Below the pieces are notes generated by a model, which was not told the origin of the DNA, ran no database searches, and saw nothing but the letters and a program-made list of their open reading frames with translations. The position numbers and the translations under genes were made by a program. Positions 38,790-49,935 of a stretch of 64,000 bases of DNA are shown here, in pieces. The stretch is from a virus (taxonomy: Duplodnaviria; Caudoviricetes), in the IMG/VR virus record IMGVR_UViG_3300021399_000166, positions 1,034-65,033 of that record, one strand, 5' to 3'. How positions within the stretch are numbered: the first letter of the stretch is position 1; each line of letters opens with the position of its first letter.

Positions 38790-39107
38790 ATGAAAGTAAA
38801 ACTTATTAATGTTGCTGAGTATGATTTAAAGGAGGGAAAGGCAGACGAGATACCTTTTAATACCTTTAGTAATTTGTGTGGCAACAATGAAAAAATTGGT
38901 GAAAAGAAACTTCCGACGGTTCGTCTTTTTAAGAGCGTTGACGAGTTCAAGAATTTGACAGAAGATGAGAGACGAATGCTTGATGTGAGTGAAAATGTAA
39001 GGATACTCCCTAATGGTCAGTTTCTTGCGTTTCTTAGAGAGGAAAATAACAAAAAGATTGCTACCACAACTGAGACAGATGCCACAGCCGATACCAAAGA
39101 GAATTAA
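38790..39107 (+). CDS. Hypothetical protein
   Basis: 105-aa ORF downstream of the structured RNA. Confidence 0.65.
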   Translation: MKVKLINVAEYDLKEGKADEIPFNTFSNLCGNNEKIGEKKLPTVRLFKSVDEFKNLTEDERRMLDVSENVRILPNGQFLAFLREENNKKIATTTETDATADTKEN

Positions 39108-40245
39108 GGAAAACAAGCCCGAATTATGTAAACAGACCTTTAACACATTATTAGTTGACGGTTCAAATATATTGGAATTATCCTCACTTGGCGATAAGAC
39201 GATATCATCATCAGGTACTCAAATCGGTGGCATTTTCCAATTTTTTTTACAACTAAAGATGCTACTTCAAAAGGGCAATTTCCGTTATGTCTATGTATTT
39301 TGGGATGGAAATAATTCCGGAAATCTCCGTTATAATCTTAATAAAGAATACAAACTGAACCGAGACAAGGAATTTGAAGATGATGACCTCTCAGATTACA
39401 TGAAAGAAGTTAATAAGAAGATTTCTAATATGTATTCATACTTCAAGAAAAAGCAGAAAGACCCTGTTAAACTTGCGGAACAGAAGAAACACAAAGAAAT
39501 ATTTTATTGGCAGAGAGATATTATAATGGAAATGTTGGAGGAATTATTTATTAGGCAATGTGTTTGTGATAAAACAGAAGCCGATGACTTTATTGGATAT
39601 TATGTCTCGCATAAGAAGGACAATGAGCGCATTGTTATTGTATCGAATGATAGGGATTTGACACAACTTATATCAGATGATGTTATAGTTTATGTACAAT
39701 CTTTGAAAACATTTGTGAATACAAAGAATCATACTGACATAATGGGTTATAATTATCAGAATGTCGTGTTAAAGAAAATGCTTTGTGGGGATGCCTCTGA
39801 TAATATTAAAGGTATAAAGGGTTTGGGTGAAAAAACTTTGTTTAATAACTTTGAAGAGTTTAAAAAACGCAAGGTAACACTTGAAGAAGTAATCGAAAAG
39901 GCTTCAAAAATAAATGAGCAGAGAATTTCCGAGAAGAAAAAACCCTTAAAATGGGCTGAAAATATTGTAAATAGGGTTACAGATGGATGTCAAGGTGAAA
40001 AGATTTATGATATAAACGAAAAAATCATAGATTTACACAACCCGCTTATGACTAATGAAGCAAAGGATGTTATAGAGGGTATGATGTATGCCCCTATTGA
40101 CCCTACTGACAGAACAATGGAAAACTTATACAATATTATTGTAAAATATGATATAGATGCACTAAAAGACACTACAACATTTGGTAACTTTTTTTCTGAA
40201 TTTATGTATCTAATTGACAAGGAAAAGAAAAACCTACCTATTTAA
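39079..40245 (+). CDS. 5'-3' exonuclease/RNase H (T4 rnh / PolA N-terminal-like)
   Basis: LLVDGSN, WDG, Y.K.NR, EADD.I, SNDRDLTQL, GDASDNIKGIKGLGEKT; start taken at MPQ. Confidence 0.92.
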   Translation: MPQPIPKRIKENKPELCKQTFNTLLVDGSNILELSSLGDKTISSSGTQIGGIFQFFLQLKMLLQKGNFRYVYVFWDGNNSGNLRYNLNKEYKLNRDKEFEDDDLSDYMKEVNKKISNMYSYFKKKQKDPVKLAEQKKHKEIFYWQRDIIMEMLEELFIRQCVCDKTEADDFIGYYVSHKKDNERIVIVSNDRDLTQLISDDVIVYVQSLKTFVNTKNHTDIMGYNYQNVVLKKMLCGDASDNIKGIKGLGEKTLFNNFEEFKKRKVTLEEVIEKASKINEQRISEKKKPLKWAENIVNRVTDGCQGEKIYDINEKIIDLHNPLMTNEAKDVIEGMMYAPIDPTDRTMENLYNIIVKYDIDALKDTTTFGNFFSEFMYLIDKEKKNLPI

Positions 40246-40249
40246 TATG

Positions 40250-40282
40250 TTGATTATTTTTATGAAATAACCTATATTTACA
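40250..40282 (+). promoter_or_regulatory. Putative promoter for omegaRNA-like element
   Basis: TTGATT...TATATTTACA; the same -7 variant precedes 14033 and resembles the one before 35355. Confidence 0.5.
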
Positions 40283-40289
40283 TATAACC

Positions 40290-40483
40290 AACCACGGATA
40301 TCAGGGATTACTTTTACAAAGTAGTGTCCGAAGAACAATATTGTACCGTAGGAACTGCGGGAACTTACGCCTCAGGAGATATAACCTCTACATTGAGGGA
40401 AACCTTAATGCAAGCCGTGTCGCTGAATGAGGAAGAAGCCCCTTTTAGGTGGGGGTAGTTCACTTTGTATATTTATTTTATGT
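40290..40483 (+). ncRNA. Orphan IS200/IS605 TnpB omegaRNA-like scaffold plus putative guide
   Basis: Encodes a TnpB-tail-like peptide TVGTAGTYASGD; hairpins CCGTAG/CTGCGG and CATTGAGG-GAAA-CCTTAATG; CCTCA/TGAGG; TGAA/TTCA pseudoknot; right end GAAGCCCC..GGGGGTAGTTCAC at 40463; no tnpB in the window. Confidence 0.75.
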
Positions 40484-40506: not shown

Positions 40507-41382
40507 ATGGAACAAAACAAAGTAATTAAAGAGAAGAGCAAGTTTGTTGATAACATTGCATATAAGAGCAAGTTTCAGTTTCTTATATGGGTGAATGAAA
40601 ATGTTATTTGCCAACGTTACTTTAAGATTAATGGTTTTAATGAGGATTCTATCTACAGTGCTGAATTTATTGACTGTATGAACGGTATAGTACGTTCAAT
40701 ACAAGAGGATTTGGAGAGTAAGAGTCGTGTATACTTGTGGTATACTAATACAGCACAGCCATTTAAGTTGCGTGGTTTCTTCACTATCGAAGAAGGAGAG
40801 AAGTATGGAGAAGAGTTTGTACGTGCAATGTGCAATGATGAGATAACAGGCGCAGTACAAGCACCTGATGGTAAGATTTTTACCAAGGAGTACATTTCCA
40901 TGTCTGATGAAGCACAAAATGATTTTGGGGAAACTCAACGTCCTTCTGATGGTGAAATTACATTTAAGTTTTCTTTTTTGATTGACGACAAACCTGTTTT
41001 TGAAAAAATATGGGATGGTAATGTATATCCTAAATTTGTGAGAAATGGTGTTGATTTGACAAACTCCTATGCCTCAAAGGATAACCATGATATTTCATCA
41101 CTCAGTTTTAACGCCGCAATCATACGTTATATGCAACGAGGAAAAAACAATCTTATAAGCGAGTTTATACGTCGTATTTGTGACACTCTTAGTAACACAT
41201 TTACTGAGAAGTATGAGTATACGAAGGAATTCGAAATGGGTGGCAAGAAATACAATTATCTTTCTGCTTATGAGAGTTACAAGAATTCATGGCGCAAGGC
41301 TGTACGCAAGAAGACACAGGAGTATTATGAGACACTTTATCCGTCACCACGTCAAATTGCATACATTGAAAAGCATTATTAA
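40507..41382 (+). CDS. Hypothetical protein
   Basis: 291-aa ORF between the exonuclease and the helicase. Confidence 0.75.
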   Translation: MEQNKVIKEKSKFVDNIAYKSKFQFLIWVNENVICQRYFKINGFNEDSIYSAEFIDCMNGIVRSIQEDLESKSRVYLWYTNTAQPFKLRGFFTIEEGEKYGEEFVRAMCNDEITGAVQAPDGKIFTKEYISMSDEAQNDFGETQRPSDGEITFKFSFLIDDKPVFEKIWDGNVYPKFVRNGVDLTNSYASKDNHDISSLSFNAAIIRYMQRGKNNLISEFIRRICDTLSNTFTEKYEYTKEFEMGGKKYNYLSAYESYKNSWRKAVRKKTQEYYETLYPSPRQIAYIEKHY

Positions 41383-43092: not shown

Positions 43093-43951
43093 ATGGAAGT
43101 AAAAAAAACCGATGGGTCTTTTGAGGAATATATTCCTGAAAAGATTGAGAAAAGTATTTGTGATGCTTTTTCTTCAGTTAATGACCAGTGTAACGAGGGG
43201 TTGCTTAAAATCTTGACAAAAAATCTTTTTGTCTATGATAAGATAAGTACACAAGAAATCAGAAGACAGGTTGAAGAAAACCTAATGTGCATTAATAAAA
43301 AGGCTGCTAAGGCGTATATTCAAAAGTACGATGACAGGAAGCATTTAAAAAAGGACGAAGATTTTATTAAGCAATATATTAATGCTTCAAACGCTTCAAC
43401 AGGTTCGAAATACGATTCAAATGCCAATGTAGGAAACAAAAACGTGGTTACTTTAGGACAAGAACTGCATAAGGGTAAAAATATTCAGCAGAATCGTTAT
43501 ATAATGCATAATAAAATTAAGACATTATATTCAAAAAAACTTGCTGACCAATACATAAAAGACCTCGAAAGCCATGTATTGTACAAGCACGATGAAAGTG
43601 GTACACCGGGATACCCCTACTGCGTTGCCATAACAATGTATCCTTTCCTTATTGATGGTTTAACAAAACTTGGTGGACAATCAACTGCCCCTACGGATTT
43701 GAAATCATATTGTGGTGAATTTATAAATTTGGTTTACTCTATTTCATCTCAGTTTATGGGGGCCGTGGCGACACCAGAGTACCTGATGTACATGGACCAC
43801 TTTATCAGAAAAGATTACGGTGATGATTATCTTAATAAACTTGACTTAAAGGTAGACCTAAGTAGAAAAGGAAGAACACTTGAAGAAGTAATTGAAAATT
43901 GTTTCCAACAAGTTGTGCATTCGATGAATATGCCAGCGGGAAACAGAGGGT
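43093..43951 (+). CDS. nrdD: Anaerobic ribonucleoside-triphosphate reductase, exon 1 (ATP cone)
   Basis: ATP cone VKKTDGS.E.Y...KI; YKHDE, PYCVAI, MN.PAGNRG; the apparent TAG stop is the 5' splice junction. Confidence 0.9.
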
Positions 43952-44943
43952 AGACTAGTGCCCTTACTGCGTTAAGAGTCTTATCGGACTCAGTTATGTA
44001 AGCAGCAATTCAATAATTGCATAAGCAAATAATACTTGCATAGCTTCGGGGAAGGTTTTATAAAATTAGTGTACTTTTTGGAACGATATATTATATATAT
44101 GCAAGTATGCATAAACAATTCTATAAAAATAATCCCGAACCAAATTAAATAATTATGTATGTATATCAAATTATTAATTCTTTAAACAATAAATCCTACA
44201 TATGAATAACTAACAATATTAAAAATCGTTTTGAATACCATAAAACTAGATACAATAAAACGAATAAAAAAGAATACATAGAAAAACCATTATATAAGGC
44301 ATTTAGAAAATATGGTATAAAAAATTTTAAGTTTATCGTTTTATTTGAAAATTTATCCGTAGAAGAAGCAAAAAATAAAGAAATTGAATTAATATCAGAA
44401 TTAAAAACATTGACCCACGAAAATGGATATAACGTAACAAAAGGTGGCGATTGGAGAAGTAATTGTGGGGAAAACAATAACACTACAATACTAAAAGAAC
44501 AAGATGTTATTGATATTAGACGAAGAATTGCCAACGGAGAAAATGTAAAAACTGTATATGAATCATATTCTGATAGAATAACGTTTAGTGGATTTCAAGG
44601 TATATATCTAGGGAGAAATTGGAAACATGTGGGAGGTATCATTAAAAACATTTTACCTAATGGGGCATCCATAAGTAAGGACACTGTTTTAAAGATTAGG
44701 AAAATGTATGAAGAAGACAGAAAAAATCCACACCAAATAGCAAAAGAACTTGGTTTGGAATATAAAAAATGTTGGAGAATTTGTAAAAGAGAAACATATA
44801 AAAATGTTTAATGTGTGTAGAGAGCATTTCCTTTGTAGGAAAGTATGTCCCTATTGATACGGGTACAGAAACACGCAGGCGTTTATGCGCAAAAGGTGCT
44901 CCACAGTATTAACTCAGTCATTCCAAGATTGATTAATGCTTTG
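43952..44943 (+). mobile_element. Group I intron (IA2-like) in nrdD
   Basis: P1 with U43951-G43960 wobble; P3 CTGCGT/ACGCAG; P7 GAGCAT/GTGCTC; P9 stem; terminal G; removal restores NRG-Y-QTVFWN in frame. Confidence 0.9.
44155..44811 (+). pseudogene. Intron-encoded GIY-YIG homing endonuclease with in-frame TGA
   Basis: MYVYQI.N..N.KSYI*ITN....R..H...E.E.I..GYN..GG; TGA at 44203 replaces the Gly of YIG; two GENN/HTH-like C-terminal repeats. Confidence 0.85.
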
Positions 44944-46262
44944 ACCAAACAGTATTCTGGAATATTGGTTATTTTGATAAAAATTACTTTGATGGTGTAT
45001 TCGGTGATTTTGTATTCCCTGATGGAACTAAACCAAAATGGGAAACTTTATCATGGTTACAGAAAAAATTCATGAAATGGTTTAATGAAGAAAGAACAAA
45101 ATATATCCTGACATTCCCTGTGGAAACTATGGCTATGTTGACAGACGGTCATGACATCGTTGATAAGGAGTATGCAGATTTCACATCAGAGATGTGGGCT
45201 GAAGGACATTCATTCTTCTGTTATCTTAGTGATTCACCTGATAGCCTCAGCTCGTGTTGTCGTTTACGTAACTCATTGAAAGACAGCAACTTAGATGAAG
45301 AACACAACCATACTACACATCAATTCTCAATGGGAACTGCTTCTGTTGCGACAGGTTCAAAGAGTGTGATGACAATAAATTTGAATCGTGTAATACAGGA
45401 TGCGACAAGAAAGTATGCAAAAGAAATTGAAAATGTTGAAATCAGTGATGGTACACAGTTTGAGGTTAAAAAGGCTGTTTATAAAGAAAAACTTTATGAA
45501 TATATTTCAAATGAGATAACAAGTTTGACTGAAAGGGTGCATAAATATCAAAGGGCATTTAATGAAATATTGAAAGATTTCTATAATAGTAATATGTTGG
45601 ATGTTTATAGTGCAGGTTTTATTTCTTTGAAGAAACAATATCTCACTGTTGGTGTTAACGGTCTGACTGATGCTGCGGAATTTCTTGGTTTGGAGGCAAA
45701 TCTGAATGAAGAATATAATTATTTTGTAAATGTCATACTTGAAACAATAAATAAGTCTAATAAGAAAGACAGAACGAAGGAATGTATGTATAATACAGAA
45801 TTTGTACCAGGTGAAAATCTTTCGAATAAGAATTATAATTGGGACAAAAAGGATGGTTATTACGTATCACCAAAGCATGTAATGTACAGTAGTTATTTCT
45901 TTAATCCTGAAGACAGTTCATTATCTATATTGGACAAGATGAAACTTCATGGCGAAAATTTTGTTAAGTATCTTGATGGTGGACAAGCGGCGCATTTGAA
46001 TTTGAACGAGCATCTTTCATTCAATCAGTACCGAGAATTACTTAAAGTCGCTTCTCAAAATGGGTGTAGTTATTTCACATTTAATGTCAAGAATTCAGTC
46101 TGCAATGATTGTGGGTACATTAGTAAAGATACCCTTGACACCTGTCCTAAATGTGGAAGTCATAACATAGATTATCTGACAAGAATAATCGGTTATCTGT
46201 CTAGGGTGTCATGTTTCGCAGAAGCACGTCAGGTAGAAGAAAAAATGAGATATTATTCATAA
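44944..46262 (+). CDS. nrdD: Anaerobic ribonucleoside-triphosphate reductase, exon 2
   Basis: QTVFWN, LTFPVET, SSCCRL, CNDC/CPKC Zn site, TRIIGY glycyl-radical motif; spliced product 725 aa. Confidence 0.92.
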
Positions 46263-47504: not shown

Positions 47505-49556
47505 ATGGCAGAAAATAAATTATCTTACTTAAATAGGAATTTTAACGATTATAAACAGGGTATAATAAATATAACAAAACAATATTACCCTGATGTGTTT
47601 GACAATATAGATGATGCGTCAATAGGCTCATGGCTAATTGAAATATTATCAGATGTCGGTGATAATCTTAATTATCATATAGACAAGAGTATACAGGAGA
47701 CATCGTTGGATTCCGCTACGGAATTTAGTTCATTGTTGGATATCGCTCGAACTAATGGTCTGAAAGTACCTTACAAGAAAGCTGCCTTGGTCGAGGTTGA
47801 ATTAAGTTGTAATATACCGATTTATGAACAAGGTACGGCAGGTGACGGTGATATGAAAGCTGATGAACGATATTGCCCTTATATCAAACGAGGAACAAAG
47901 TTTTCAAATGGTCTTACTACATTTGAACTTAATGGTGATATTGATTTCAAGGAACAATTCGATGAGAATGGTAATCCGAATTTACAAATCATTCCTAATC
48001 GTGATACAAATGGGAATATAATATCATATACATATAAAAAGTTGGGTATCGCTACGTCTTGTCAGACAAAGGTTTTCAAAAAGGTCATTACAAGCGAAGA
48101 TATTAAGCCTTTTATGGAAGTATTAATACCTGATTCTAATGTAATAGGTATTGATAGTATCATATTAAAGGAGGGTACGAACATTAACTCTGACCCGCAA
48201 TTGAATGAATTTTTTGTCGATGAAGAAGAATATAAGGATAAATTAAATAATGATATAATTAGGTATTTCGAGGTTGATAACTTAATAGACCAATATAGGT
48301 TTGGATATGAAGTGGAAGAAGCAACTTCGGACATGATAGACGATAACGACGTTATTCATAAAAGATTCTATAATCCTATATGGGAGAAAGAAATTGCATA
48401 TGAAAAAGATGGTGAAGAAATCGTTCTTAAAAAATGTGTAAAAGGTAAGTGGAAGAGACTTAAACATAAGTTTATTACTGAATACACCGATAATTGGCAG
48501 TTAAAAGTCATTTTTGGTGCAGGTCTTGAAAATAAATATGGGAATATACCTGACAATGCCAAGCAATTTACACAATATCAAATGTCTCGCATGACAGCAA
48601 ATGACTATATGGGCGTGTTACCAAAAATCGGACATACTATGTATATACTTTATAAAGTCGGTGGTGGTGAGATAAGTAATATTGCAACTGATACCTTGAC
48701 AAGTATCGTCGGTTTGAATATCGAAATAGACGGGAATTGTGAGGATGCTGACAATAATAATAAAATCAGAAATGTAAGGAATAGCATAACTGTTACTAAT
48801 ACAACGCCTTCATATGGGGGCAAGGATGCACCGACCGCAGAAGAAATACGTTATATGCTCAAATATAATTCAACTTCTCAAAATAGATGTGTGACGTTAA
48901 AGGATTATCAGGCAAAAATAAATGAAATTCCTGCCAAGTATGGCGTACCTTTCAGATTTGGATGTATTGAGGAAAACAACAAAGTCGTAATATACACACT
49001 TGGTCTTGATTCGGAAGGTCATTTAATGAAAGAATTGGCTGAAGTCGTTGCTGATAACATGAAGGAATATCTGAAACAATATAAGATGCTGAATGATTTT
49101 GTGGAAATAAAATCAGGTAAGGTAATAAATCTTAAATTTAAACTTACCGTCTATGTTGATAATAGTTATGACAAATCAGAAGTGACGAAACGTATAATTG
49201 ATATGGTCTATGATTATATGGATATAAGGCATCATATGATGGGAGAAGATATTTTCGTCGGCGATTTGGAAAAAGAAATCTCTAAACTTGATGGTGTGAT
49301 AAATCTCACCAGAATGAGAATTTATAACCCTGTAGGTGGTGGTTATTCAGACGATGGTACAACACAGGAATTAACAGACCCTACGGCATGTGGCCATAAT
49401 GACTATGATGCATATAGTGAGACCACCCAATTAGACTTATCAAACGAAATTGACCTAAACAAAAGCGACTATATGCTTTTTAGCGAGGCTAATAGTATGT
49501 TTGAAATTAAAAACAAAGCAACAGATATAATCGTAGAGGTTAAAGTAAGAAACTAA
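47505..49556 (+). CDS. Baseplate wedge protein (T4 gp6/baseplate J-like)
   Basis: Y.NR.F.D, LIEI..VGD.L.Y.D...E..L.SA, GG.D..T.EEI, QNRCVT..DY. Confidence 0.85.
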   Translation: MAENKLSYLNRNFNDYKQGIINITKQYYPDVFDNIDDASIGSWLIEILSDVGDNLNYHIDKSIQETSLDSATEFSSLLDIARTNGLKVPYKKAALVEVELSCNIPIYEQGTAGDGDMKADERYCPYIKRGTKFSNGLTTFELNGDIDFKEQFDENGNPNLQIIPNRDTNGNIISYTYKKLGIATSCQTKVFKKVITSEDIKPFMEVLIPDSNVIGIDSIILKEGTNINSDPQLNEFFVDEEEYKDKLNNDIIRYFEVDNLIDQYRFGYEVEEATSDMIDDNDVIHKRFYNPIWEKEIAYEKDGEEIVLKKCVKGKWKRLKHKFITEYTDNWQLKVIFGAGLENKYGNIPDNAKQFTQYQMSRMTANDYMGVLPKIGHTMYILYKVGGGEISNIATDTLTSIVGLNIEIDGNCEDADNNNKIRNVRNSITVTNTTPSYGGKDAPTAEEIRYMLKYNSTSQNRCVTLKDYQAKINEIPAKYGVPFRFGCIEENNKVVIYTLGLDSEGHLMKELAEVVADNMKEYLKQYKMLNDFVEIKSGKVINLKFKLTVYVDNSYDKSEVTKRIIDMVYDYMDIRHHMMGEDIFVGDLEKEISKLDGVINLTRMRIYNPVGGGYSDDGTTQELTDPTACGHNDYDAYSETTQLDLSNEIDLNKSDYMLFSEANSMFEIKNKATDIIVEVKVRN

Positions 49557-49574
49557 TCCCAAAAATAATGTTTC

Positions 49575-49612
49575 AAAACCACTGTTTGTTTATGCAAATG
49601 GTGGTTTTTTTG
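49575..49612 (+). terminator. Intrinsic terminator
   Basis: AAAACCAC...GTGGTTTTTT. Confidence 0.55.
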
Positions 49613-49669
49613 TTGATTAAAACAATAAAAAAACACATTATTATAATATAAAATTTTTAATTAGAAACT

Positions 49670-49927
49670 ATGGCTTGTGCTTGTAAAAATAAGTTAAAAA
49701 CAATTAACCATCTTTCTGGTTATGAAGACGAAGAACGTAAACTTTCATTTTTTGAAAAAATAATGAAAATATTTTCACAAATTTGTATTGGAATTATCGT
49801 CGGTGCTATAATTATTGTTATCGGCATACCACTTTTATTAGGTGTAATCATATGCCTTATGTGTGGCAAACAATTGCGTTTTAACCCAAGAAGTTTGGAA
49901 GAATATTATAATAAATACAAGAAGTAA
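49670..49927 (+). CDS. Small membrane protein
   Basis: Long hydrophobic segment ICIGIIVGAIIIVIGIPLLLGVIICLM. Confidence 0.6.
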   Translation: MACACKNKLKTINHLSGYEDEERKLSFFEKIMKIFSQICIGIIVGAIIIVIGIPLLLGVIICLMCGKQLRFNPRSLEEYYNKYKK

Positions 49928-49935
49928 GACTATCA

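Follow-up and report, generated by a model that had tools for sequence, protein, structure and literature searches.

In TnpB systems the guide of the omegaRNA is placed directly 3′ of the right end, and the transposon-adjacent motif (TAM) next to which the parent elements insert is TTAC for IS608 and TTGAT for ISDra2. Meers et al. 2023 (PMC10055086) have a homing model with cleavage of the insertion-free allele, and they also described minimal PATE-like elements in Geobacillus. TnpB is often carried by phages (PMC12607003); that article also cites Nety et al. 2023 for the finding that TnpB cuts its own mRNA into omegaRNA. The locus described here lies at 40246/40250-40463 in a jumbo-phage replication module, within a 64-kb window (the whole stretch of DNA that was analysed) of a 65-kb IMG/VR viral contig. 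By sequence comparison it is a 214-218 bp, non-autonomous remnant of the IS200/IS605 family, with all of its parts on the + strand. A sequence-only reading of the window had described an orphan TnpB omegaRNA-like gene with a decayed mobility end and had taken this combination as a sign of domestication. The comparisons below confirm, at the level of sequence, that the omegaRNA template is an orphan, that a promoter block precedes it and that its transposition end is degraded; the domestication part of that claim found no support. The element is probably a stranded, immobilised PATE-like IS200/IS605 remnant that is young and selfish and was not recruited by the phage.

CheckV rated the record 18% complete, and from its 65 kb the whole genome would be that of a jumbo phage, at roughly 360 kb; the remaining 82% of the phage genome lies outside the record. 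The window has a GC content of 33%, and the 261-nt spacer around the element is locally GC-rich (45% vs about 27% in the flanks). Upstream of the element lie genes for thymidine kinase, a UvsX/RecA-like recombinase and a 5′-3′ exonuclease (39013-40245), and downstream lie a conserved replication-module gene without an assigned family (40507-41382) and a DnaB-like helicase gene. Elsewhere in the window, nrdD is divided between two ORFs, 43093-43953 and 45072-46262 (region 43093-46262), both of which match PF13597, and a 133-aa ORF (44410-44811) occupies the gap between them. The split is probably due to an intron- or intein-type insertion; Rfam gave no group I intron at gathering level at nrdD.

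A TnpB-tail-like reading frame had been noticed in the element, and protein searches agreed with this. The translated frame 40288-40455 generated 14 matches at E ≤ 1e-3 in a phmmer search of 1.84e9 proteins (best 3.6e-16), 13 of which fall at or near protein C-termini; the exception, P0007, is a 688-aa protein without TnpB domains. PF07282 (Cas12f1-like TNB) is present in P0002, P0003 and P0004, and OrfB_IS605 scores above the cut-off in P0003, so these three, which are among the larger matches, are TnpB fragments. In the alignment with these fragments, the window remnant begins right after the RuvC-III motif DRDYNAALN, at LRDYFYKV. The tnpB 3′-terminal remnant thus recognised from the phmmer matches and from identity to the related element at L144:2508-2673 (see below) covers about 54 codons at 40293..40458, with the original tnpB stop at 40456-40458, and its frame is still open in the window copy. 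Domain searches of the 65-kb record, about 18% of the phage genome, found neither tnpB (PF07282/PF01385) nor the Y1 HUH transposase gene tnpA (PF01797), in line with the reported lack of both genes at the element.

The closest full-length parent among the sequences found is, by sequence comparison, an element on L144, a 61.5-kb jumbo-phage contig fragment rated 17% complete with a GC content of 33.6%. The full element on L144 begins with TTTAA, a left-end hairpin and a 43-nt block; tnpA (Y1_Tnp PF01797, 1.4e-38) comes next, then tnpB, whose 418-aa product has three TnpB domains, and last the right end. Window positions 40250-40292 are identical (43/43) to L144:944-986, the block just upstream of tnpA, and 40298-40463 shows 92.9% identity over 169 nt to the tnpB 3′ end and right end of L144 (L144:2508-2673). 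In a comparison of phage group, the two contigs shared a single protein with a weak match. Because both retained pieces are present in L144, a single internal deletion took tnpA and about 87% of tnpB; relative to L144, about 1.6 kb comprising these two is missing, plus the left end. At the deletion junction (40292/40293), the block from upstream of tnpA, which by its identity to the L144 and L140 blocks is the probable promoter/5′-UTR block of the parent IS (40246..40292), is fused to the end of tnpB. The identical junction was found on L140, a small metagenome contig with completely different flanks, in an element of about 300 nt that has both ends and retains the left-end hairpin and the flanking TTTAA. 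The same junction in different flanks indicates that the deletion arose once and that the ~300-nt mini-IS then moved. A 24-mer specific for the junction revealed no further copy in viral and JGI metagenome contigs. A mini-IS with the same layout (left end, promoter, tnpB stub, omegaRNA, right end) and a different junction occurs on L303, at one locus in several samples, and its junction marks it as formed separately from the type shared by L140 and the window.

The omegaRNA scaffold template was placed at 40335..40463 by a covariance model and by covariation in the family. The model, R1, was seeded with six TnpB-associated copies, the window sequence being excluded, and matched 40335-40463 over its full length (model 1-129) with 119.1 bits (E 2.9e-28), the sole match in the 64 kb. 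RNAalifold, applied to eight related 3′ ends, found compensatory change in 14 of 40 pairs and returned five elements: a 6-bp CCGYRG/CYRCGG hairpin (P1, 40346-40360), a nested CCUCA/UGAGG helix and an inner 8-bp helix (both within 40335..40463), an 8-bp GNRA-capped hairpin (40391-40410) and the right-end hairpin (40438..40456). In a larger alignment of 49 matches from many contigs, which was fitted to the model and of which the RNAalifold run is independent, 33 of the 40 pairs changed on both sides and 92.8% of cells were paired; slid partners paired in 32-43%, and 0/500 shuffles attained the observed values. The pairings CCGTAG/CTGCGG and CCTCA/TGAGG and the 8-bp GAAA-capped stem, proposed from the window sequence alone, therefore correspond to family helices with compensatory changes. 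Where the sequence-only reading had put a TGAA/TTCA pseudoknot, the consensus fold has GAACU (40360-64) pairing with AGUUC (40457-61), with weak support (78% of cells paired). An extra 5′ hairpin proposed at 40296-40330 was not upheld, being absent from the family consensus fold and having its 3′ half deleted in L140. Folding of the single sequence did not surpass that of shuffled sequence, with z −0.88 for one strand and +0.44 for the other, so it is the family comparison that supports the structure. Rfam gave nothing at gathering level on the whole window; membership in RF02269 (HPnc0580, a Helicobacter pylori sRNA) was rejected at 18.8 bits (E 1.7), far under the gathering score of 37, the likeness being weak and confined to the P1 hairpin and the following segment.

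The window copy keeps 36 of the 40 scaffold pairs, vs 31 of 40 in the decayed copy L141. Its inner helix has two A·C mismatches, one of which is common in TnpB-linked copies, and its helix changes relative to L140 and L144 amount to three point changes, two pair-keeping and one pair-breaking. In the right-end hairpin the outer 6 bp stand and the inner 2 bp were lost by a +AAG/−TCC rearrangement, which bears out the suggestion that the subterminal hairpin is shortened; right-end hairpins elsewhere in the family are perfect stems, mostly of 7-12 bp.

The right border of the element is sharp. TCAC (40460..40463) is the right-end cleavage site and transposon boundary, and similarity to L140 and L144 stops within 3 nt of it (40463), the next three T also being present in L140 and the flanks differing further out. 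The right end given in the sequence-only reading as GAAGCCCC..GGGGGTAGTTCAC proved to be the terminus common to the intact TnpB elements L022 and L144, and the terminus GGGTAGTTCAC after GAAGCCC and a hairpin is likewise common to L022, which resides in a close relative. On the left side, TTTAA (40241..40245) overlaps the exonuclease stop codon and abuts the left junction, and the IS promoter block starts 4 nt after it. TTTAA also precedes the conserved left-end GCAAGAA by 8-10 nt in 11 of 17 family left ends, from which we infer that it is the TAM of the family. The left-end hairpin and the GGGATGAATYG motif, present in L140, L144, L145 and L146 (the hairpin region spans about 95-125 nt in L140 and L144), are absent at the window locus, and no target duplication was seen at the insertion. 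With the left end gone, the right-end hairpin shortened and no transposase gene in the record, the window copy is presumably immobile.

A search with the exonuclease protein yielded thirteen related loci, at 60-84% identity over the segment that matched best, and their exonuclease genes stop at the residue where the window gene stops. All nine relatives that extend past the exonuclease gene (exonuclease identity 60-82%) lack the element between the same two genes, although these relatives are not isogenic with the window phage and the empty site is not base-exact. Among these nine comparable relatives the insertion is thus present in the window lineage only. A check for an empty site had been suggested earlier, and its outcome argues for a simple non-autonomous IS insertion.

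The right-end pattern GAAGCCC-N6-24-GGGTAGTTCAC was found in at least 117 viral contigs (L023-L139), with co-varying hairpin stems; the apparent TAM in this right-end family is TTTAA, or TTTTA/ATTTA in one subgroup. A strict pattern of the scaffold core had no match in species genomes. A looser core pattern matched in Selenomonadaceae, Clostridia, Nitrososphaeria, Asgard archaea and more than 120 metagenome contigs, the 5′ core TACCGYDGGRACYRCGGRAAYNYACGC..GGAGA being observed in species genomes L149-L174 of these four taxa, so that the same omegaRNA type spans bacteria and archaea and the scaffold motif is too widespread to point to a host. Searches of phage and plasmid records, by megablast/blastn with the locus and by tblastn with the tail, gave no meaningful match. 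Six exact matches of the 19-mer CCGTAGGAACTGCGGGAAC in viral contigs were all dismissed as chance, lying inside a Gly-rich coding gene.

TnpB genes were also surveyed in related and other jumbo phages. The complete genome G007 (contig of L145; 339,287 bp, with terminal repeats) has 8 PF07282 (TnpB/Cas12f-like) matches above cut-off, at open frames of 222-600 aa, which indicates that such jumbo phages are heavily colonised by TnpB elements; a 107-kb fragment has three. Two relatives of the window phage carry one TnpB each. Two diverged relatives have different TnpB-only IS, L022 (G004:C1:40673-43876; TnpB of 398-414 aa) and L021 (G005:C1:24027-27230; TnpB of 378 aa), both just downstream of one conserved gene whose homologue lies at window 49197-49553. 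The site of L022 is empty in the window (49557-49935), and the position downstream of this gene looks like a recurrent insertion spot.

The preferred reading, a young remnant of a selfish element, runs as follows. In a tnpA-tnpB element like that of L144, a single internal deletion fused the block before tnpA with the terminal ~170 nt of tnpB, which hold the omegaRNA scaffold and the right end, giving a mini-IS of the form seen in L140, in which TTTAA is followed by the left-end hairpin, promoter, omegaRNA and right end up to TCAC. This mini-IS was probably mobilised by TnpA in trans and landed 3′ of the TTTAA that overlaps the exonuclease stop codon, and the window copy would afterwards have lost the left-end hairpin and part of the right-end hairpin. 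Rightward transcription could come from the IS promoter or from read-through, with the element as leader of the mRNA of the downstream gene. As the scaffold is nearly intact (36/40 pairs), it could still load a cognate TnpB; we propose that, if such a TnpB were present, the window RNA could be processed and loaded, and that TTTAA-TTTGTATATTTATTTT, the insertion-free allele, would then be cleaved as in the homing model.

The preserved RNA structure is what had suggested domestication. Its retention can be put down to the youth of the element, to which the 92.9% identity to the parent L144 and the few helix changes attest; preservation of the scaffold and the open remnant frame are expected from youth and are also compatible with selection. 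With preservation accounted for in this way, with empty sites in nine relatives and with the L140 mini-IS located elsewhere, the case for domestication lacks support, and nothing in the compared sequences indicates recruitment of the element by the phage.

It is unlikely, though the best placed of the other readings, that the locus is a working trans-acting omegaRNA gene whose TnpB comes from the same phage, a co-infecting jumbo phage or the host. In this case the RNA would direct cutting of related phages that lack the insertion at TTTAA plus the guide, after which recombinational repair would copy the locus into them or the competitor would be destroyed, much as homing endonucleases act in T-even phages. 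The nearly intact scaffold, which scores 119 bits with a model seeded only by TnpB-linked copies, fits this reading, as do the promoter block that reads into the scaffold and the TAM exactly at the left junction, which would make the insertion-free allele a legal target and leave the filled allele protected. TnpB is moreover frequent in this phage size class (8 in the complete 339-kb genome, one each in two relatives), and PATE-borne omegaRNAs acting in trans have already been proposed (PMC10055086), so the trans-guide use of such stubs is not new. However, the 65 kb of the record hold no TnpB, the complete 380-kb relative G001 gave no TnpB match, and the scaffold of L022, the TnpB element of the nearest relative, is of a distant subfamily, at 33 bits with model R1. 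Orphan right ends also mostly lack the scaffold: about 40% of the right-end sites with enough upstream DNA among the matches listed in viral contigs are without TnpB (37 orphan, 56 TnpB-linked), and, again among the matches listed, the model matches 7 of the 37 orphan vs 30 of the 56 TnpB-linked right ends, so scaffold retention is not general in orphans.

By position the would-be guide is TTTGTATATTTATTTTATGT at 40464..40483, which is flanking phage DNA and doubles as 5′ leader for the gene downstream; it contains, at 40469, ATATTTAT, the putative late-promoter motif of the sequence-only reading. The guide 40464-40483 has no second close match in the window, and matches with up to 3 mismatches carry no signal in AT-rich DNA. 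The 21-mer consisting of TTTAA and the first 16 nt of the guide has 4 exact matches in other large viral contigs, with about 3 expected. These four are on the IMG/VR contigs L299-L302, which measure 63-304 kb, and all fall between genes, in DNA that looks like promoters, at two unrelated loci; they were rejected as true targets, since their number is about equal to base-composition chance and the loci are unrelated. None of the relatives has a TAM+guide allele at the homologous site, which speaks against use as a trans-acting guide.

Slightly less credible still is the reading in which the remnant was kept as promoter and 5′ leader of the gene at 40507-41382, the native promoter having been lost along with the left end. 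The spacer between the exonuclease and downstream genes in the relatives measures about 65-130 nt (85-90 nt in most), and in relatives L002-L012 it holds near-perfect TTTG-N19-TAnnTTTG motifs before the downstream gene. We take these motifs to be the Bacteroidota promoter type; they hint at a Bacteroidota host for the phage group of the window. The native-like spacer left between the right end and the downstream ATG in the window is shorter, at 43 nt, and such a promoter seems absent from it; either the spacer of this lineage was short from the start, or the native promoter went in the same deletion as the left end. With the native promoter apparently gone from these 43 nt, the element may now matter for the downstream gene, toward which the IS promoter block is oriented, and one deletion of left end and native promoter would explain both absences. 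Against this, insertion at the stop-codon TTTAA would imply, improbably, that the loss of the native promoter stopped precisely at the border of the right end, and read-through from the upstream gene, or ATATTTAT as a phage-specific motif within the 43 nt left, could serve instead.

The promoter match itself is also weak. The sigma-70-like TTGATT-17-TATATT (40250-40278), inside the promoter block, fits the consensus at 9/12 positions, and 5 such matches were found vs 3.6 expected by chance in the AT-rich window. The claim that the gene has its own promoter thus holds in part: a promoter-like block common to L144 and L140 stands in front of the scaffold, but the consensus match is not above shuffles. 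To judge from its place upstream of tnpA, the block is probably the tnpA promoter of the parent. That it is the native promoter of the downstream gene was ruled out, as L140 and L144 show its IS origin.

The cassette without its left end might also be a fixed guide gene of the phage, with TnpB encoded elsewhere or supplied by a co-infecting phage and cutting the insertion-free allele of competitors; this we regard as very unlikely. If true, such a guide gene would be an RNA-guided marker-exclusion or gene-drive device at the junction of exonuclease and replication genes. A TldR-type locus was ruled out, as there is no adjacent TnpB-family gene and the insertion is absent from relatives.

By itself, a young remnant of this kind is an ordinary by-product of IS200/IS605 decay. 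It is a clean, datable example, in that parent, complete mini-IS, immobilised copy and empty sites were all found, and it draws attention to a very large TnpB/omegaRNA family, abundant in jumbo phages, with the fixed right end GAAGCCC-hairpin-GGGTAGTTCAC and TTTAA as its TAM. Should the phage have a cognate TnpB, the locus would be a simple system in which to test whether TnpB guides serve in phage-phage competition.

Among the known systems, guide RNAs of TldR, a nuclease-dead TnpB (PMC10705468), resemble the locus in that a fixed guide comes after a scaffold of TnpB type and the transposon ends are immobilised. The window differs from them in that the record is without a TldR/TnpB gene, the insertion is not conserved in relatives, and the guide is flanking DNA, with no separate target found. 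With IS605-type elements (L144, IS608, ISDra2) the window copy shares the right-end terminus, the type of subterminal hairpin, insertion 3′ of a short TAM (here TTTAA) and an omegaRNA that overlaps the tnpB 3′ end, the retained pieces being 92.9-100% identical to L144; unlike them, it is without tnpA and 87% of tnpB (about 1.6 kb together) and without the left end. Of the traits of the IS200/IS605 family, the target motif and empty sites are found in the window copy, and tnpA, tnpB and hairpins at both ends are not. Two sequence-level traits of a TnpB omegaRNA, homology to tnpB 3′-end RNA and covarying structure, are both apparent from the comparisons. The closest likeness is to the PATEs (PMC10055086): the window element has no protein genes, goes back to an IS with tnpB, of which the omegaRNA template and the right end remain, and would need TnpA and TnpB in trans. 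Its sister copy L140, with both ends and the TAM, falls within the definition of a PATE (palindrome-associated transposable element) as a short non-coding element with a left-end and a right-end palindrome that can be mobilised in trans. The window copy itself is not a complete PATE, as the left-end hairpin is missing, and it differs further in its place in a jumbo-phage replication module and in the direct fusion of the tnpA-preceding block to the scaffold. As far as these comparisons go, the present locus is particular in occurring in a phage, in having lost its left end and in carrying this fusion.
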